Source of the DNA: Clostridia bacterium
Lineage (GTDB): Bacteria > Bacillota > Clostridia > Oscillospirales > CAG-272
DNA length: 64,000 bases
Direction of reading: 5' to 3'
Assembly (NCBI GenBank): GCA_017455185.1
Contig: JAFTBN010000075.1
Span: forward strand, 11,545 to 75,544
This document shows positions 40,801 through 46,580 of the stretch, piece after piece. A program made the position numbers and the translations under genes. Positions within the stretch are counted from its first letter, which is position 1. Each line of letters begins with the position of its first letter. The notes under the pieces were generated by a model. It saw only the letters and a program-made list of their open reading frames with translations, did no database searches and was not told the DNA's origin.

Positions 40801-42745
40801 TTGCGTTTCCTCCTCTCAAGGTATCCTGCACGTACTGCTCGTAAGCCTTGCGGCTGTTGACCTCGTCCTGCAGGCCTGCGATCTGATTCTGCAGCTGCGC
40901 CATCTCGTTCAGGCGTGCGATCTCGGTCCGGATGCGCTCCACGTTGTCGCGTGCGTACGGATAGTGCGCTTTTTCCATATTTTGCCAGTATATGAGCTTT
41001 GTCTGCGGCAGAGCCGGGTCTCCGTAAGCACCAGCCTGGAAGTTTTCCTTGTTCTGCTGCCAGAGCCATGCACGGTCCAGTTCTTCCTCGGGGTTGCTGG
41101 AGCACGAGAACGTGTAGTCGTCCGCATAGTAATACTCGCCGTTTTCGTCTCGCTCGATGAAATCGTAGCGGTTGAAGATGCAGTTTTGCAGATTGCCTTC
41201 CGCGTCCCGGTAGGCCGCCGGTCTCGGTTCGTCAGCGTAAGCGAGATAATACTGAAAGATGATGCGGTCTATCTCCGAATACGCGAAATTCTTCATGACG
41301 CGCTTGGACTGCAAACGCCCGGAAGACTGCTGAACCTGGACCTGCTTGGCAACACCGGACTGCGCCGTGCTGTCCGAGAGGCCTCTGTAGCTGTCCGTGA
41401 TGCCGAGGATCCGCTTTGCGTGCTCATACACGCGCTCGGACTGCTCCACGTCCTGCCCGATCTGGGCCTGCAGGTCCAGCTTGGCAAACAGGTTGAAATT
41501 GTTTGGCCGTGCCCGGAAGACCCTCTCATACAGGCTGTCATCCAGCTGGTCGACGAAATCGTCCGGCACGATTGGGAACACGCCCGATTTGAGAATCTTT
41601 TCCAGGATCCTGGACTCGATCTTGTTGATCTCCTGCTGCTGGTCCCGGATGTATTCGCAGTCACTCTGCCCCAGCAAGGACTCTTCCTGGCTGGTGTTCT
41701 TGCGGATGACGACCGGGAACGCGGTAATCTGATACCACGGAATGCGCGTCGGCTCGGTCTTGGGAACCTCGACGTCTACCATCATAGGCAGGGCTACGCC
41801 GTTGATCAGGTCAATGGCGGTAGAACCGTCCGGATTGGTCACCGGCGCCTGCTGGGTCTCCATCACCACCTGCCCGTTCTCAATCACCGGAGACAGGCGA
41901 GGCAGCACGGACCCGTCCGCCCGGACGATATCGTGGTCCAGCTCCTCGAATTCTTCATCTTGCACCTCGAAATAAGGCATTTCGCACGTGCACAGGCGCT
42001 CCGGCCTTCCACATTTGACGCACACCTTCTTTTTGCGGTTGTAATAGTCTTCTATCCACTGGATTTCCTGATCGCCGGACCAGATGTACTGGCAGACCTT
42101 GTCCTTGTCGTCCTTGTAATAGCACACGTACAGGGTCGCGGTCTTGTCGTCCGTGCTGTCTTCGCTCTCCAGATCGTCCAGGATGGACACGTCCACGTCA
42201 TACTTGCGCAGGATGTCTTCCTTCGTGGTCTCGAAGAGGATAAACAGGTACTCCATGTCTTCGATGGCGTAGATGTTCGGCTGGCCAACGAACCGATGCG
42301 GCGGCAGGCAGCTGACGCGCACGTCTCCGCTGGTGTTGTGCGTCGTGATGGTCTCATCCCATTCCACAAGCCAAACGGACCCTCCGTAGATCGGGTTGTA
42401 CCGCTCGTCTATATCGTTGAGCGATTCAAACGGCAACCGGTCCCGGTTGGTGTTGAGCATGGTCTCAATGGCCTTGGCGTTGCGCAGATTGCGTTCTGAC
42501 ACCATCTTGGGCTCTACCTTAGGCGACGGGATATACGTTGAGATCTGCGCCTCCACGAACTCGTACGTGATGTTGCGGACCACTTTTGCATCCACAGACG
42601 ACCCGTCTATCTGCTTGGAGCCCTTGTACTGCTCCATCCACTTCTGCAGGGCCAGCCGTGAATTTTCAGACTGCCCCAATGCTTCCTGGTACAGGTCCTG
42701 AAAAAACCGTACCCGTTCTTCCTTGCCGTTTCCTTCTATCTTCAT
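40793..42745 (-). CDS. Portal protein
   Basis: 650 aa, directly downstream of TerL (ATGA overlap). The N-terminal region is typical of portals (QKWMEQYKG...RNITYEFVEAQISTYIP). A CxxC...CxC insert is present. Confidence 0.8.
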   Translation of the reverse strand: MKIEGNGKEERVRFFQDLYQEALGQSENSRLALQKWMEQYKGSKQIDGSSVDAKVVRNITYEFVEAQISTYIPSPKVEPKMVSERNLRNAKAIETMLNTNRDRLPFESLNDIDERYNPIYGGSVWLVEWDETITTHNTSGDVRVSCLPPHRFVGQPNIYAIEDMEYLFILFETTKEDILRKYDVDVSILDDLESEDSTDDKTATLYVCYYKDDKDKVCQYIWSGDQEIQWIEDYYNRKKKVCVKCGRPERLCTCEMPYFEVQDEEFEELDHDIVRADGSVLPRLSPVIENGQVVMETQQAPVTNPDGSTAIDLINGVALPMMVDVEVPKTEPTRIPWYQITAFPVVIRKNTSQEESLLGQSDCEYIRDQQQEINKIESRILEKILKSGVFPIVPDDFVDQLDDSLYERVFRARPNNFNLFAKLDLQAQIGQDVEQSERVYEHAKRILGITDSYRGLSDSTAQSGVAKQVQVQQSSGRLQSKRVMKNFAYSEIDRIIFQYYLAYADEPRPAAYRDAEGNLQNCIFNRYDFIERDENGEYYYADDYTFSCSSNPEEELDRAWLWQQNKENFQAGAYGDPALPQTKLIYWQNMEKAHYPYARDNVERIRTEIARLNEMAQLQNQIAGLQDEVNSRKAYEQYVQDTLRGGNANA

Positions 42746-43011
42746 GCCGGCAATCCTCCCATTATCTTGATAATTGCCTCTCGCTCTGTGTTACTCCGCG
42801 CGTTGCGGTAGTCCTCCAGGCGATCCGGGCTGTAATGTACATATTTAACGGTCTGCTCTTTGGCAGGCGTTATCCAGTAAATGCAGAAATACCGTAAACT
42901 ATCACAATTATGGACAATCACTCCACTATTTACAGAAAAACAGTGCGTGCTATCCACATATAAGTCATATACTTTCTGCTTGTTCCCTCTCCTTATATGG
43001 GTGATATGCAC
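42742..43011 (-). CDS. terL: TerL fragment 4: split-intein C-half (35 aa) fused to the TerL C-terminal 54 aa
   Basis: GTG at 43011 lies 8 nt after AAGGAGG. The piece ends ...VYDLYVDSTHCFSVNSGVIVHN, then Cys+1 (42906-42904), then DSLRYFCIYW (nuclease Asp motif). It ends in an ATGA overlap with the portal start. Confidence 0.8.
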   Translation of the reverse strand: MHITHIRRGNKQKVYDLYVDSTHCFSVNSGVIVHNCDSLRYFCIYWITPAKEQTVKYVHYSPDRLEDYRNARSNTEREAIIKIMGGLPA

Positions 43012-43546
43012 AAGACCTACCTCCTTTTTGTCTGCTTCTGAATGCGCCTTTACAATTATTGCTACAGAATTTGCTCCTTAAAGCACACATTTTTGGCGTT
43101 TCGTACTCTCTTCCACACATAAGACACACCTTTTTGACTTTTGTCTCTATCGACGGAAGAATTGACGAATTCCAGTGTTCTTTATGCCACACTCTGCCTT
43201 TTGTGCCTTTATGCCATTCAATTGCTTTTGGTCTTGCTTTCTCATTCATGTTTTTTCTTGCTCTTTCTTTTGCGACTTGCGATGAAGAATGAAGTGATAA
43301 ATGACCATAACCGTTTATCATTTGCAGATTGTCTATGCTATTGTTTGCTTTATTTCCATCCTTGTGATGAATGTGATATCCTTTCGGCACGACACCATTG
43401 TGCTTTTCCCACACATAAATATGCAATCGCTTGATTTTCTTTTTCCCAACACTTCCTGCATAGTAACCTTGCTTAGTTGGATAAAAACGAAACCCATCCA
43501 CTATGATTGCCTTTGAGTCTTTACTTGGTTTCCTTCCGCCTGGCAT
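42965..43546 (-). CDS. Free-standing HNH homing endonuclease between the split-intein halves
   Basis: ATG at 43546 lies 7 nt after GAGGAGG. HNH motif HIHHKDGNKANNSIDNLQMI plus a C-terminal CxxC..CxxxC cluster. It is in a different frame from both TerL halves and overlaps each by ~46 nt. Confidence 0.85.
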   Translation of the reverse strand: MPGGRKPSKDSKAIIVDGFRFYPTKQGYYAGSVGKKKIKRLHIYVWEKHNGVVPKGYHIHHKDGNKANNSIDNLQMINGYGHLSLHSSSQVAKERARKNMNEKARPKAIEWHKGTKGRVWHKEHWNSSILPSIETKVKKVCLMCGREYETPKMCALRSKFCSNNCKGAFRSRQKGGRSCAYHPYKEREQAESI

Positions 43547-44661
43547 ATATCGTCCTCCTCTGTAAGTATTCCTGCGGGTATCCATCCCCTGTTGCTTGTT
43601 AGTACAAGATGATCTGGCGTGCATTCCAACTCGGTTCCATCATCGAATGTAAGGATAATCGTCTCCTTTTCTCCCATACAAACGCAAGCCTGGTAATCTT
43701 GCTCTTCACCAAGCAAAGATATCAATTTGCCACTTGTGCCTTCCAAGTCTTCTATCCTTGCCTGCGTGCCATCGGCCATGTTGACGAGCGTATTACCCGC
43801 GAGACACGCATGCGTTATCTCATGCGGATCCAGCGAGCAGTCGTTCGGCCGTTTCGGGTCCCGTAGGATCTCGATCATGCATTTGATAAGCTCTTTGCAG
43901 GTGTTGAATATCCGCAGCTTCGGGATCCCGTGCTCATCCGGCCGGAGCATCTCCTTGATGGCAAGCCATCCGGCCTCCCGGTCGTTGCTCGCTTTGGTCA
44001 GCTCCAGGCCTGCCTCATAAAAAAGCTCGGCCTTGCTCTTGCCGGTCTCCTGGCTTCTGCTCCACAGATCCGGCGGAGCGAGCACAGCGTATATATCATC
44101 GCCGGCAGACCACTCGTTGATTTTCTCGGCCGCTTTGCTGATAATTAGGTTACTTTCGCAATACTCCTTGTAGCAGTACACGTACCCTTCCCGGTCTATC
44201 GCGTACCAGTAAGCAGCGAGCCGGTCGAGGCCGTAGTCAATCGAGATATACCGCCTCCAGGACGAATCAAGCGGGCAAGGCTGGATGACATGCACCCGGC
44301 GGTCAAAATCGTCAAACATCTGACCCTCGGCCACATCCCACGAGCCATAGCGCCATCTCTTGCGCATGTCCTCCGGCAATGAATCCAGCTGCGCCACGTA
44401 GTCCGGGTTTGCCTCCATCAGAACCTGGTTATCCGTAACCAAAGACTGGATAAACAGGTAATCGTCCGGGTTCTCTCCGTCTGTGTAGTCCCGAGAGACA
44501 AACAGGCGCTTGACCCAAGCGAAGCCCACGCCGTCCGGGTTGCATGTCAGATAGATCCGTTTCGGGCGATTGTTCGCGCCACGAAGGCAGGCCTTGAGGA
44601 CGTTGAAAACGCTCTCCATAAATTGCGTCGCTTCTTCCAAAAAAATTACATCGTACTCTTG
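43501..44661 (-). CDS. terL: TerL exon 3: Walker B and nuclease domain (285 aa) fused to the split-intein N-half (101 aa)
   Basis: QEYDVIFLEEATQF (Walker B), ISIDYG, DPHEITHA, then CLAGNTLVNMADG...TPDHLVL (Hint blocks A/B) from codon 43806. The frame stops at 43503-43501. Confidence 0.85.
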   Translation of the reverse strand, partial: QEYDVIFLEEATQFMESVFNVLKACLRGANNRPKRIYLTCNPDGVGFAWVKRLFVSRDYTDGENPDDYLFIQSLVTDNQVLMEANPDYVAQLDSLPEDMRKRWRYGSWDVAEGQMFDDFDRRVHVIQPCPLDSSWRRYISIDYGLDRLAAYWYAIDREGYVYCYKEYCESNLIISKAAEKINEWSAGDDIYAVLAPPDLWSRSQETGKSKAELFYEAGLELTKASNDREAGWLAIKEMLRPDEHGIPKLRIFNTCKELIKCMIEILRDPKRPNDCSLDPHEITHACLAGNTLVNMADGTQARIEDLEGTSGKLISLLGEEQDYQACVCMGEKETIILTFDDGTELECTPDHLVLTSNRGWIPAGILTEEDDICQAEGNQVKTQRQS

Positions 44662-45428
44662 CAATCGTGTTATCCGGCAGGCTTTTTATCTTGCCGTTCT
44701 TGCGATTTCTCGCAAGTTCAGCATATCTTTTCATCCCTTACGGGAGCCGTGGCCTCGTGGACGGGTTATATCTTTTCACCGTCTATGCGTTGCGGCTGGC
44801 AACAGTAACTGCTGCCTTCACCTCTGATTGCCTTGCTTTTTGCATATAAGAGACGTTTTCGCGTAACGGGATCCACCTGCAATTGTCCGGCGAATAGTCC
44901 AGATCCGGGTTAATCCTGTCAATTGACATGCAATCACCTTTTGTTTGCCCGTTTTGGGGCTCTACATATCCGTGACTGTACGACCATTCCCGGAAGGCCT
45001 CGTAATCCTGCCATTCCTGGCAAAGCTTGACGCCTTTTCCGCCGTAATACTTGTATGTATGCACATTTGGGTTGTTGCATCTCTGCTTTATTCCAATCCA
45101 AATGTTGTAAAGCCTTTCCTTGTCGGAATGCCCGTGCGTCAGATGGCTGTTTACGCCTGCTTCACGCCGAAAGCATCCGCAAGACTTGGTCACACCCTTT
45201 CTCAGGTTTCCGGCTTCTGCGACCGTGACACAGCCGCAATCGCATGCACATCTGTAATACAAGTGTGATTTTCGCGTGTGATCATACGCAATAACAGTCA
45301 GTCTTCCGTATTTTTTCCCGATTTCGTCTCTCATATGTACCCTCCTTTGGGTATTTTGCAAAAAGTTTAGGTTTCCAGGTTTTTTCCACGGTTTTCGATG
45401 GCCGTTACCGGCCAAAGGGGCAAGATTC
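44662..45428 (-). mobile_element. Group I intron 2 in terL (767 nt) carrying a homing-endonuclease-like ORF
   Basis: Exon 2 ends ..CAGGGU. The intron ends ..ACGAUUG (terminal G). It has a GCCCC guide-like element and shares conserved blocks and a 3' hairpin with intron 1. Confidence 0.75.
44783..45334 (-). CDS. Intron-encoded homing-endonuclease-like protein
   Basis: ATG at 45334 follows AAGGAGGG. KKYGRLTVIAY...CACDCG...SCGC, WQDYEAFREW and SIDRINPDLDYSPDNCRWI are typical of phage intron/free-standing endonuclease-like proteins. Confidence 0.65.
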   Translation of the reverse strand: MRDEIGKKYGRLTVIAYDHTRKSHLYYRCACDCGCVTVAEAGNLRKGVTKSCGCFRREAGVNSHLTHGHSDKERLYNIWIGIKQRCNNPNVHTYKYYGGKGVKLCQEWQDYEAFREWSYSHGYVEPQNGQTKGDCMSIDRINPDLDYSPDNCRWIPLRENVSYMQKARQSEVKAAVTVASRNA

Positions 45429-45677
45429 ACCCTGGTACTGTAGCGCGTCCGCGTCTGATTGGAAGTACGAGCACTTTAGCGTTGACCCATTCACGAACTG
45501 AAACGTGCGGTCCATCTCTTTCCATCGCGCGATCTCCGGCGGAATTTCGGCCCGGAGCGGCATGATATGGTTGTCTTTTAAATCGACGAAGGTCTTCCGA
45601 ATGATCAGCATCTTGATTCCGGGCCACTTGATGGCCAGCCTTTTTGCCTTTTCCCGGACTGCCCAGCTCTTTCCACC
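45429..45677 (-). CDS. terL: TerL exon 2 (83 aa)
   Basis: GGKSWAVREKAKRLAIKWPGIKMLIIRKT...SDADALQYQG. It supplies the GKS of Walker A and ends at the conserved YQG. Confidence 0.8.
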
Positions 45678-45975
45678 CATTATTGTTACCGCAGAGGCTT
45701 TTTATCCTCTGCTTCACGGCCTTTCGCGCCGTGGTCAGCGTACATTTTCCGCATTCGCGGTCGGGCACTCTTGGCAGGGTTATATTTATTCACCTGCTAC
45801 GCGTTACGGAGATCAGCAGCCTTTCGCAATCTGCTGATTTTCCTCGGTGTTGCCATGATATCGATTCAGATTCGCTCTCGTCGAATTCGTCTTTTACTTC
45901 CATCTCCATGCCTCCTTGCACGTTTCGATATTTTAGGTTTTCACCGATTTTGCCCGATTAAGAGGCAGTGTGTTT
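45678..45975 (-). mobile_element. Group I intron 1 in terL (298 nt, ORF-less), inserted inside the Walker A loop
   Basis: Exon 1 ends AGAGGU. The intron begins AAACACACUGCCUCU, where GCCUCU can pair with AGAGGU (P1 with a G.U pair at the splice site). The intron ends AAUAAUG. It is homologous to intron 2. Confidence 0.75.
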
Positions 45976-46071
45976 ACCTCTCGCGCCGCCAAAGGCCACA
46001 TATTTAGCGGTCGCCGTCATAAACTCCCTTTGTTTGGGCTGTGGCCGGCCCAGCTTAAACGTAACCGTCAT
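45976..46071 (-). CDS. terL: TerL exon 1 (32 aa)
   Basis: ATG at 46071 overlaps the terS stop (ATGA) and follows GAGGAG. MTVTFKLGRPQPKQREFMTATAKYVAFGGARG supplies the first half of Walker A. Confidence 0.7.
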
Positions 46072-46580
46072 ACTGACTCCTCGTCCACCTCGGCCTGATT
46101 CTCGGTCTCGATCCGGACAGTCAGCACGTTGTCATCCGGCGCCTTTTCCCGGAGCCCGTACTTGGCCGAAAGCAGAAACTTCCCAAAATTGGCGTTGTGG
46201 ACGCCGTCGTTCGAAGCGTCAATCAGGTTCTGCTGATCATACCGGTCTACTATGTCCCAGACAGCCTTCCATTCCGGATAGCGCAGCTTTCCGTCCGGAT
46301 CCACGGCACAGGCCCAGTATTCCAAAGTGCTGATCACCACGCCAATTCTCCGGGCAAAGCCCACCTTGGATGGCAGAGGCCGGGTCATCCGGTACTTCTT
46401 CCCGGACGCGTCCTCATATTCGTCATACATGGGCTCGTTGTAGTAATCGAGGAGCATTCTGGCATACTCGGGCTGATACTTGCTCTCGTGCAAATACACG
46501 CTGTATTTGTGGCCATCTGCGAACGTTCCGTTCGGATTTTTCCCGTCCCATTTCTCTTTTGGGCTGTATTTTTTTGCCAT
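46068..46580 (-). CDS. terS: Terminase small subunit
   Basis: 170 aa, first gene of the late arm, translationally coupled to terL. The motif FGKFLLSAKYGLREK is typical of TerS C-terminal parts. The call rests on position plus this pattern. Confidence 0.65.
   Translation of the reverse strand: MAKKYSPKEKWDGKNPNGTFADGHKYSVYLHESKYQPEYARMLLDYYNEPMYDEYEDASGKKYRMTRPLPSKVGFARRIGVVISTLEYWACAVDPDGKLRYPEWKAVWDIVDRYDQQNLIDASNDGVHNANFGKFLLSAKYGLREKAPDDNVLTVRIETENQAEVDEESV

Follow-up and report, generated by a model that had tools for sequence, protein, structure and literature searches.

Two probable group I introns and a predicted split intein in one phage TerL gene

Group I introns have been known in terminase genes since the 1990s (Lactobacillus phage LL-H), and SPbeta is known to combine introns and an intein within a single operon. 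The introns of Staphylococcus phage Twort orf142 and of T4 td, both of subgroup IA2, have been shown experimentally to self-splice, and a crystal structure is available for the Twort ribozyme. Genes for the large terminase subunit, TerL, carry two or three group I introns in Bastillevirinae (PMC11878797), and crAss-like phages have TerL inteins and intron-rich core genes (2021, PMC7886860). Terminase introns of Bacillus cereus prophages, assigned to group I, IA1 or IA2, match elements of Lactobacillus phage JCL1032 and Staphylococcus phage ROSA by BLASTN, and early in-frame stops are a habit of prophage group I introns (Tourasse and Kolsto 2008, PMC2504315). For fractured genes, intein N-halves of 88-105 aa and C-halves of 33-54 aa have been described, with one terminase locus among them; the associated endonucleases are GIY-YIG or Vsr-like, an HNH enzyme having only been predicted as a possibility (Dassa et al. 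2009, PMC2677866). Here we analyze a 64,000-nucleotide stretch of a contig from a Clostridia bacterium (JAFTBN010000075.1; the window), in which a phage TerL gene is interrupted by two inserts that are very probably group I introns and, further downstream, by what is predicted to be a split intein.

The interrupted TerL gene

A sequence-only reading of the window had proposed that the N-terminus of TerL is encoded in three pieces, separated by two homologous group I introns of which one lies inside the Walker A loop. Upon re-reading of the sequence, the exon and intron coordinates and sequences proved to be as given there. The upstream part of the locus is composed as follows:

46068-46580, minus strand: TerS-like open reading frame (ORF), 170 aa; PHROG 3064 'terminase', E 5e-10
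45976-46071, minus strand: TerL exon 1, 32 codons, ...AFGGARG, first half of Walker A (sequence and tblastn)
45678-45975, minus strand: intron 1, 298 nt, between exons 1 and 2
45429-45677, minus strand: TerL exon 2, 83 codons, GGKSWAVREK...DALQYQG, from the second half of Walker A to the YQG motif
44662-45428, minus strand: intron 2, 767 nt, between exons 2 and 3
43807-44661, minus strand: N-extein part of TerL exon 3, 285 codons, QEYDVIFLEEATQF...PHEITHA

The TerL start codon is overlapped by the stop codon of the terminase small-subunit-like ORF (ATGA), and the N-extein part of exon 3 encodes Walker B, the remaining ATPase domain and most of the nuclease domain. When the unspliced DNA was compared by tblastn with an uninterrupted homologue, the TerL of the gut phage contig MT836592.1 (55% identical to the window TerL), the exons were found as three colinear pieces corresponding to residues 5-34, 35-116 and 118-400, with residue 117 (N) of the homologue corresponding to the Q that opens exon 3. 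Zero residues are lost or gained at GGARG/GGKS and YQG/QEYD (the slash marks the junction), where the local sequence of MT836592.1 is near-identical: YGGARG/GGKSWAVR and LQYQG/NEYDVIFLDEATQF. The uninterrupted homologue thus aligns gap-free over both junctions, colinear and exact, and joining the three pieces restores Walker A as had been proposed. In the joined protein, Pfam Terminase_3 gives a single continuous match over residues 27-220. The nearest relatives of this TerL are found in unclassified gut phage contigs and in Bacillus phage PK1; the phage is not crAss-like.

Both inserts follow an exon-terminal U and end in G, as the sequence-only reading had noted, with ...AAUAAUG at the end of intron 1 (terminal G at 45678) and ...ACGAUUG at the end of intron 2 (terminal G at 44662), and the junctions are fixed by the homologue alignment. 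Both are in phase 0, and an in-frame UAA is encountered 5 codons past the 5' splice site in intron 1 and 7 codons past it in intron 2. The last three bases of each intron furthermore resemble a start codon and are in frame with the exon that follows (AUG 45680-45678, UUG 44664-44662); ORF finders hence list 'MGGKSW...' and 'MQEYD...'. Neither codon is preceded by a ribosome-binding site, and inspection of the sequence revealed none upstream of exons 2 and 3. The bases of both codons are part of the intron tail, the start of which, GRUAACA, is conserved across the intron family described below.

Ribozyme core and intron family

The middle of intron 1 is 75-80% identical (blastn) to short stretches in several phages, namely Staphylococcus (ROSA and others), Clostridium and Clostridioides, and crAss-like phages, and in the annotated records inspected the matched stretch sits just 3' of an endonuclease-type ORF that interrupts a phage gene. 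Family members are present in the crAss-like genomes cr6_1, cr131_1, cr118_1 and cr7_1, and the conserved-block pattern of the intron 1 subfamily was found in at least 120 IMG/VR stretches. The family structure was derived by eye and examined in an alignment (A1) of 36 non-redundant copies from unrelated viral contigs whose cores are not interrupted by an ORF, and has the element order P3, J3/4 (AAAA), P4, P5, P4', P6 (with a C-GNRA-G cap), J6/7, P7, P7.1, CAAGAG, P3', P8, J8/7 and P7' (P, paired; J, joining segments; primes denote 3' strands), the P7.1 loop being the 14-nt UGAAUAAAUAUAAY.

In A1, 94.7% of the cells form standard pairs, as opposed to 32-44% with partners slid by 1-3 columns; compensatory changes are seen at 29 of the 41 pairs, and none of 500 shuffles reached any of the observed measures. 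The compensatory pairs include those of P3 (5/6), P6 (8/8), P7.1 (5/5, 100% paired) and P7 (2/6, 100% paired). P3 occurs in the family in types such as UCGAGC/GCUCGA, CCCAGC/GCUGGG and GAACGG/CCGUUC, and P7 covaries at two positions in all 36 sequences, with GC 21 / AU 15 at one and GC 24 / AU 12 at the other, the latter lying across a bulged base of the P7 5' strand (C45803 in intron 1, C44789 in intron 2). Together, P3 and P7 make up an interlocking pseudoknot, the topology by which group I introns are recognised. Near the 3' end, a hairpin around the loop AUAAAAAG (P9.x) is fully paired in 166 of 183 non-redundant family members and occurs with 87 different stem sequences, both counts being among the matches listed.

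A covariance model, R1, was built from A1 alone, with no window sequence included. Searched against both strands of the window (128 kb), it returned two matches, both on the coding strand, and none elsewhere: the whole core of intron 1 (45960-45732, minus strand, 143.3 bits, E 8e-33), with a 74-nt insertion relative to the model in the P5 loop, and the 3' half of intron 2 (44866-44715, minus strand, 55.4 bits, E 1.6e-11). Other family members score 72-181 bits, and intron 1 falls inside this range. The occurrence of the R1 pattern at both inserts is far beyond chance, and in a base-by-base check all core helices were found intact in both introns, with P3 to P9 present in each. Judged from their sequences, the inserts represent two subfamilies of one large intron family of Firmicutes phages and gut phages. 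With exon colinearity, splice sites, a covariation-backed core and family membership in agreement, the proposal of two homologous group I introns in the TerL ATPase domain is well borne out, and we consider it highly probable that both inserts are of this type.

Intron 1 is IA2-like, without P2 and without an endonuclease gene, and has the following elements:

45961-45970, minus strand: internal guide CACU-GCCUCU (sequence; P1 in the minimum free energy (MFE) fold)
45761-45957, minus strand: P3-P6 domain, pairs checked base by base
45957-45952 with 45766-45761, minus strand: P3, UCGGGC with GCCCGA
45947-45942 with 45849-45844, minus strand: P4
45937-45936 with 45854-45853, minus strand: P5
45931-45925 with 45864-45858, minus strand: P5a
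45838-45831 with 45819-45812, minus strand: P6, tip C-GAAA-G
45737-45804, minus strand: P7 and enclosed elements, pairs checked
45804-45798 with 45742-45737, minus strand: P7, A45804 (C45803 bulged) and GCGUA 45802-45798 with UACGC-U 45742-45737
45797-45793 with 45778-45774, minus strand: P7.1, loop UGAAUAAAUAUAAC, inside P7
45760-45757 with 45752-45749, minus strand: P8, inside P7, which also encloses the P3 3' strand
45678-45733, minus strand: 3' domain, with P9 formed by 45733-45728 and 45720-45715
45712-45691, minus strand: P9.x hairpin GCAGAGG-AUAAAAAG-CCUCUGC, then the tail GGUAACAAUAAUG
45790-45909, minus strand: short ORF, 39 codons from the first AUG (45909), in the P5a loop

P1 of intron 1 comprises 6 bp between GCCUCU (45966-45961, intron positions 10-15) and AGAGGU, the terminal six bases of exon 1 (45981-45976), with a U.G pair at the splice site; it agrees with the P1 put forward in the sequence-only reading and is also seen in the MFE fold. 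A possible P10 is formed by CACU (45970-45967) with GGUG of exon 2 (45677-45674). The P3/P7 pseudoknot of the family is present here too. The MFE fold of intron 1, computed with no family input, recovers P1, P3, P4, P5, P5a, P6, P7.1, P8, P9 and P9.x (z = -4.3).

The short ORF of intron 1 had been described as a 39-codon remnant with a Shine-Dalgarno (SD) sequence. It does have 39 codons when counted from the first AUG, but the SD-like AAGGAGG (45917-45911) is separated from that AUG by only 1 nt, its distance to the second AUG being 7 nt. The ORF continues through the ribozyme core, and searches of Pfam and PHROG gave no family match for it. Its start (45909-45880, M-E-V-K-D-E-F; GACGAAUUCG) bears a weak likeness to the endonuclease start in intron 2 (45334-45310, M-R-D-E-I; GACGAAAUCG), over a very short length. 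From the SD-like motif and this very short similarity, the ORF may be the relic of an endonuclease gene, and a loss of the endonuclease from intron 1 is plausible.

Intron 2 is likewise IA2-like, belongs to the second subfamily and is divided by its ORF into two halves:

45358-45425, minus strand: 5' half (sequence, MFE fold and pair check)
45413-45400, minus strand: P2, GGCCG-GUAA-CGGCC
45391-45386, 45378-45375, 45371-45370 and 45365-45358, minus strand: 5' strands of P3, P4, P5 and P5a, respectively
44783-45334, minus strand: ORF of 183 aa with the SD AAGGAGG, in the P5a loop; PHROG 374 'HNH endonuclease', E 2.7e-50
44662-44843, minus strand: 3' half (model R1, MFE fold and pair check)
44843-44836, 44832-44831, 44827-44824 and 44752-44747, minus strand: 3' strands of P5a, P5, P4 and P3, respectively
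44816-44798, minus strand: P6
44790-44784 with 44725-44720, minus strand: P7, A44790 (C44789 bulged) and GCAUA 44788-44784 with 44725-44720
44783-44760, minus strand: P7.1
44745-44734, minus strand: P8
44716-44699, minus strand: P9
44696-44675, minus strand: P9.x, then the tail GAUAACACGAUUG

The MFE fold of full-length intron 2 recovers P2, P3, P4, P5, P5a, P6, P7.1, P8 and P9 (z = -6.2), with P3, P4, P5 and P5a pairing across the 552-nt ORF. The last 21 codons of the ORF overlap the core from P5a', via P4' and P6, through P7, and its UAG stop straddles the boundary between the P7 5' strand (two bases) and P7.1 (one base). The PHROG match agrees with the endonuclease-like nature proposed for the 183-aa product, a predicted HNH-type homing endonuclease; PHROGs alone identified the ORF, as neither a Pfam hit nor a meaningful PDB sequence match was obtained. 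The guide region of intron 2, AUCUUGCC (45425-45418), is fully complementary over 8 bp to GGCAAGAU (44695-44688), the 5' strand and loop of the P9.x hairpin. This pairing could be due to chance, or it could be an alternative conformation that competes with 5' splice-site recognition.

Two blocks that the sequence-only reading had described as common to both introns were found with amendments. A shared 5' block exists in the form AAACCUAAA, but GAAAACCUAAA is exact in intron 1 only, and the 3' hairpin with a common loop is seen in both introns, but contains one A.C mismatch in intron 2.

With respect to Rfam, the curated gathering score of the group I model RF00028 (Intron_gpI) is 50 bits. When applied with laxer filters to intron 1 alone, RF00028 yielded a sub-threshold, partial local match (25.5 bits, E 1e-4, model positions 48-158) that assigns the same P3, P4 and P5 as the structure derived here; in a positive control, the same model found the three Twort orf142 introns with 64-101 bits. 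As RF00028 detected none of 20 other family loci, its failure is a property of the whole family and not of the two window copies: the family is a divergent group I lineage below the Rfam threshold. An absence of covariance-model hits, named beforehand as an outcome that would speak against group I introns, was therefore observed only formally, in that there is no hit at the gathering threshold.

Through R1, the inserts are in turn connected with recognised group I introns. A score of 135 bits is reached by the terL intron of Lactobacillus phage JCL1032, whose coding sequence was deposited as a two-piece join, and the Staphylococcus phage ROSA element and a Clostridium phage terL element are matched as well. 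Intron 1 of Twort orf142 is found with E 0.0018 in 50 kb, in the same region that RF00028 identifies as Intron_gpI. The helix order of the Twort introns is alike, including an extra hairpin between P7 and the P3 3' strand, and Twort and both inserts share (Y)AACG before P7, UGA(A/C)C after P7' and a terminal hairpin followed by G(U/A)UAACA..AUNG, the Twort tail being GUAACAUAAUUG and the intron 1 tail similar. T4 td has the same helix order and motifs. Unlike Twort, with its far higher RF00028 scores, the present family has a single hairpin between P7 and P3', the P7.1 with its conserved 14-nt loop, followed by the conserved single-stranded CAAGAG linker, instead of the P7.1/P7.2 pair that, along with a P9 region of several hairpins, characterises IA2; P9 and P9.x are present, and intron 1, unlike the Twort and td comparison group, is without P2. 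We describe the architecture of both inserts as IA2-like.

Several observations weigh against the group I interpretation or parts of it. Rfam gave no group I hit in the whole window at the gathering threshold, nor in the 3.8 kb of 42500-46300 at E <= 10, and RF00028 found nothing in the 3' half of intron 2 when this was searched alone. P4 and most of P7 are invariant in the family, hence those pairs are untouched by covariation. A second hairpin (P7.2) between P7 and P3' was found neither in the family alignment nor in the introns, and the IA2 label draws in part on comparison with the td and Twort structures. P1 of intron 2 had been proposed as GCCCC with AGGGU; its four pairs GGGU/GCCC (45421-45418) are present, but the fifth is an A.C mismatch, leaving 4 bp only. 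The possible P10 of this intron, UCUU (45425-45422) with AAGA of exon 3, requires the first exon base to bulge, and its MFE fold favours pairing of the guide with GGCAAGAU in P9.x over P1. A search of IMG/VR for an intron 1 orthologue at the Walker A site, using the pattern GGNGGNGCNMRNGGTAAACA, gave 46 stretches, in none of which an intron core followed, which is weak evidence because the pattern was narrow. Finally, the case for splicing is drawn from the anatomy of the inserts.

A different account of the same arrangement would see three separate genes, the products of which assemble non-covalently without RNA splicing, as for Aeh1 nrdA, a gene split by a free-standing HNH gene. The in-frame start-like codons at the insert ends (AUG 45680, UUG 44664) fit this account, and there are known cases of split phage genes whose products come together as proteins (cited in PMC2677866). 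It is nevertheless hardly credible: the first break falls inside the Walker A loop (GGARG/GGKS), which is implausible for two chains; exons 2 and 3 lack ribosome-binding sites; the terminal AUG and UUG belong to the family-conserved intron tail; and a covariation-backed ribozyme structure is not expected of a plain intergenic spacer.

Origin of the two introns

The sequence-only reading had further suggested that the introns spread within the gene by duplication or homing, with one copy then losing its endonuclease gene. For such a relation speak the common architecture, several sequence blocks and the AUAAAAAG hairpin loop, the location of the SD-like motif and short ORF of intron 1 in the P5a loop, as for the endonuclease gene of intron 2, and a 9/10 nt match near the ORF starts (GACGAAUUCG and GACGAAAUCG). 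The identities point elsewhere. The core of intron 1 is 71% (median) to 79% identical to family cores from unrelated contigs, but only 60.6% identical to that of intron 2, which ranks 104th of 105 among the intron 1 neighbours in core identity, among the matches listed. Intron 2 belongs to a different subfamily (P7.1 loop UGAAAAGAUAUAA, P4' AAUCAGAGGUGAAGG), for which IMG/VR likewise yields at least 120 stretches, and its 3' half is 83% identical to its closest relative among the matches listed, on the viral contig L219 (subfamily median 74%). The shared blocks are family-wide and not specific to this pair. On the identity ranking, intragenic duplication was rejected, and this part of the earlier proposal is not supported; that the two are copies of each other, by duplication or ectopic homing, we regard as very unlikely.

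The relatives of intron 2 give an indication of its history. In L219 the intron occupies the same TerL site as intron 2 (...EYQG/...QEYDWIFIDEATQ), as does a copy in a second contig, L195. The endonuclease is 68-70% identical in these introns (70% in L219), whereas the host TerL proteins are only 35-50% identical, and the guide/exon pairing of P1 is present in both orthologues. An intron that recurs, with its endonuclease, at one site of diverged TerL genes is what site-specific homing between phages is expected to leave behind. Neither relative has a Walker A intron, as their TerL align in one piece over residues 2-116 (L195) and 7-116 (L219). To judge from these comparisons, the two introns were most likely acquired independently, which is a better fit than duplication within the gene.

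Further interruptions were seen among related loci. In four TerL relatives on IMG/VR contigs (L173, L236, L208 and L181), a third interruption site lies at or just after TCNP/NPGG, with gaps of ~870-910 nt in L173, L236 and L181 and of ~680 nt in L208. It appears that TerL in this clade is targeted repeatedly, at several of its catalytic motifs. Two members of the intron family per contig were found in the viral contigs L034, L029, L067, L099, L093 and L131; the copies in L034 (29-238 and 538-759) are only ~300 nt apart and may share one gene. In L011, L015, L022, L050, L062, L082 and L115, a family intron is located in a different terminase type, after ...ASRGVG and upstream of the Walker B LIFDEAAF. 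Its P1 loop is almost identical to that of intron 1 (AAACAACACU and AAACACACU, respectively), with another guide, GCCGAC, that pairs with exon GUCGGU, so that it looks like the same scaffold retargeted by guide changes.

Split intein, proposed maturation and comparison with known systems

Downstream of the N-extein part of exon 3, the TerL gene is interrupted again, by the following predicted elements:

43501-43806, minus strand: intein N-half, 101 aa, CLAGNTLV...TPDH... then stop; weak match to Pfam Intein_splicing
42965-43546, minus strand: free-standing HNH endonuclease gene, 193 aa; Pfam HNH_3, E 3e-14; PHROG 15471
42907-43011, minus strand: intein C-half, 35 aa, ...GVIVHN, with its own SD AAAGGAGG and a GTG start
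42742-42906, minus strand: TerL C-extein, 54 aa, CDSLRYF..., fused to the C-half

The C-half and C-extein constitute one 89-aa ORF (42742-43011), the stop of which overlaps the start of the portal gene, and the HNH_3 gene has its own SD (GAGGAGG), lies in a different frame and overlaps both intein halves. Uninterrupted homologues read TH(A/I)CDALRYF across the intein site. When fused in silico, the halves align end to end (1-138) with the RecA, DnaX, NrdJ-1 and DnaE mini-inteins, and the hallmarks of split inteins are present: Cys1 (CLAGN...), TPDH of the TxxH block, and a ...VIVHN/C terminus. On these sequence features, the downstream part of TerL is broken by a naturally split intein with predicted trans-splicing activity, in the manner of a fractured gene. 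A third group I intron in the HNH region 42965-43546 was also considered and rejected: the ORF overlaps both intein halves, so that a ribozyme core could not be accommodated, R1 gives no match in this region, and a separate ribosome-binding site and start codon are present for every piece.

In the proposed course of maturation, the TerS-TerL operon would be transcribed as one RNA, in which each intron folds into its P3-P9 core. An external guanosine bound in P7 would attack the phosphate after the exon-terminal U, held in P1 by the U.G pair; the terminal G would then replace the external guanosine in the binding site, and the exons would be ligated, restoring Walker A (G-ARGG-GKS) and the YQG-QEYD...LEEA Walker B context. 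The spliced mRNA would end in the intein N-half, and the separate C-half with the last 54 residues would be joined by protein trans-splicing, yielding a predicted mature TerL of 454 aa (32 + 83 + 285 + 54). Intron 2 would be the mobile unit, its HNH endonuclease cutting or nicking intron-less TerL alleles during co-infection and thus driving homing of the intron into the conserved TerL site, and intron 1, without an endonuclease, would persist as a passenger.

The inserts might instead be former introns that no longer splice, in a TerL pseudogene of a decaying prophage. Intron 1 is without an endonuclease gene, intron 2 has a short P1 with which another pairing competes, three selfish elements have inserted into the gene, and on the contig the phage genes have bacterial-looking neighbours, all of which would suit decay. 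We consider this quite improbable, as all exons are open, in frame and conserved at the catalytic motifs, no core helix is disrupted in either intron, intron 1 with its R1 score of 143 bits does not fall outside the 72-181 bits of the family, and the endonuclease ORFs are undamaged, as are the two intein halves with their ribosome-binding sites. The full proposition, that a functional TerL needs two group I RNA splicings, one within the Walker A codons where the narrow pattern search gave no orthologue, plus trans-splicing by an HNH-fractured split intein, with the introns drawn from a family of at least 240 IMG/VR stretches below the Rfam threshold, we hold to be evenly balanced.

As to the surroundings, next to the phage genes, on one side, lie a CBM9 gene and a metallophosphatase / F5-F8 type C gene, and the sole Rfam match in the window at the curated threshold is a DUF3800-XI RNA (RF02975; 56865-56911, minus strand; 51.4 bits, gathering score 37.8). 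The window matches a 70-kb metagenome scaffold (L297; ENA ERZ28653955, scaffold_734) and a Logan contig (L298; SRR12529385), where public gene calls list fragments of 37, 37, 183, 387, 193 and 89 aa and leave exon 2 uncalled. For annotation this means that gene callers split TerL into pieces of 37, 387 and 89 aa and miss exon 2, and that Rfam at default settings does not flag the problem; with a covariance model specific to the family, such as R1, many phage core genes now in fragments would be recovered. In one essential gene, the locus compactly combines several selfish elements, namely introns of two subfamilies, HNH endonucleases of two kinds and a split intein, and should be useful for studying how catalytic motifs (Walker A, the YQG/Walker B region and the nuclease Asp motif) are targeted and how such elements coexist. 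Both the pair of intein halves (101 + 35 aa) and the small 298-nt ribozyme are of potential use as tools.

All element types found here are already known, and our understanding of these classes is unchanged. The terL introns of JCL1032 and LL-H, of the B. cereus prophages (term-IVS1/2) and of Bastillevirinae are the same type of element in the same host gene, but their insertion sites differ, and the window gene also has a split intein. In crAss-like phages, core genes of gut phages including TerL are likewise broken by several selfish elements; there the reported TerL cases carry contiguous Hint-Hop inteins, whereas the intein in the window is split. Its layout of a 101-aa N-half, an endonuclease gene and a 35-aa C-half is that of the loci of Dassa et al., from which it differs in that the endonuclease is an HNH_3 enzyme and in that the gene holds two group I introns in addition. 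Notable about this locus are the Walker A insertion site, the fact that a single gene holds two introns as well as an HNH-fractured split intein, and how large an intron family goes undetected by standard Rfam annotation.

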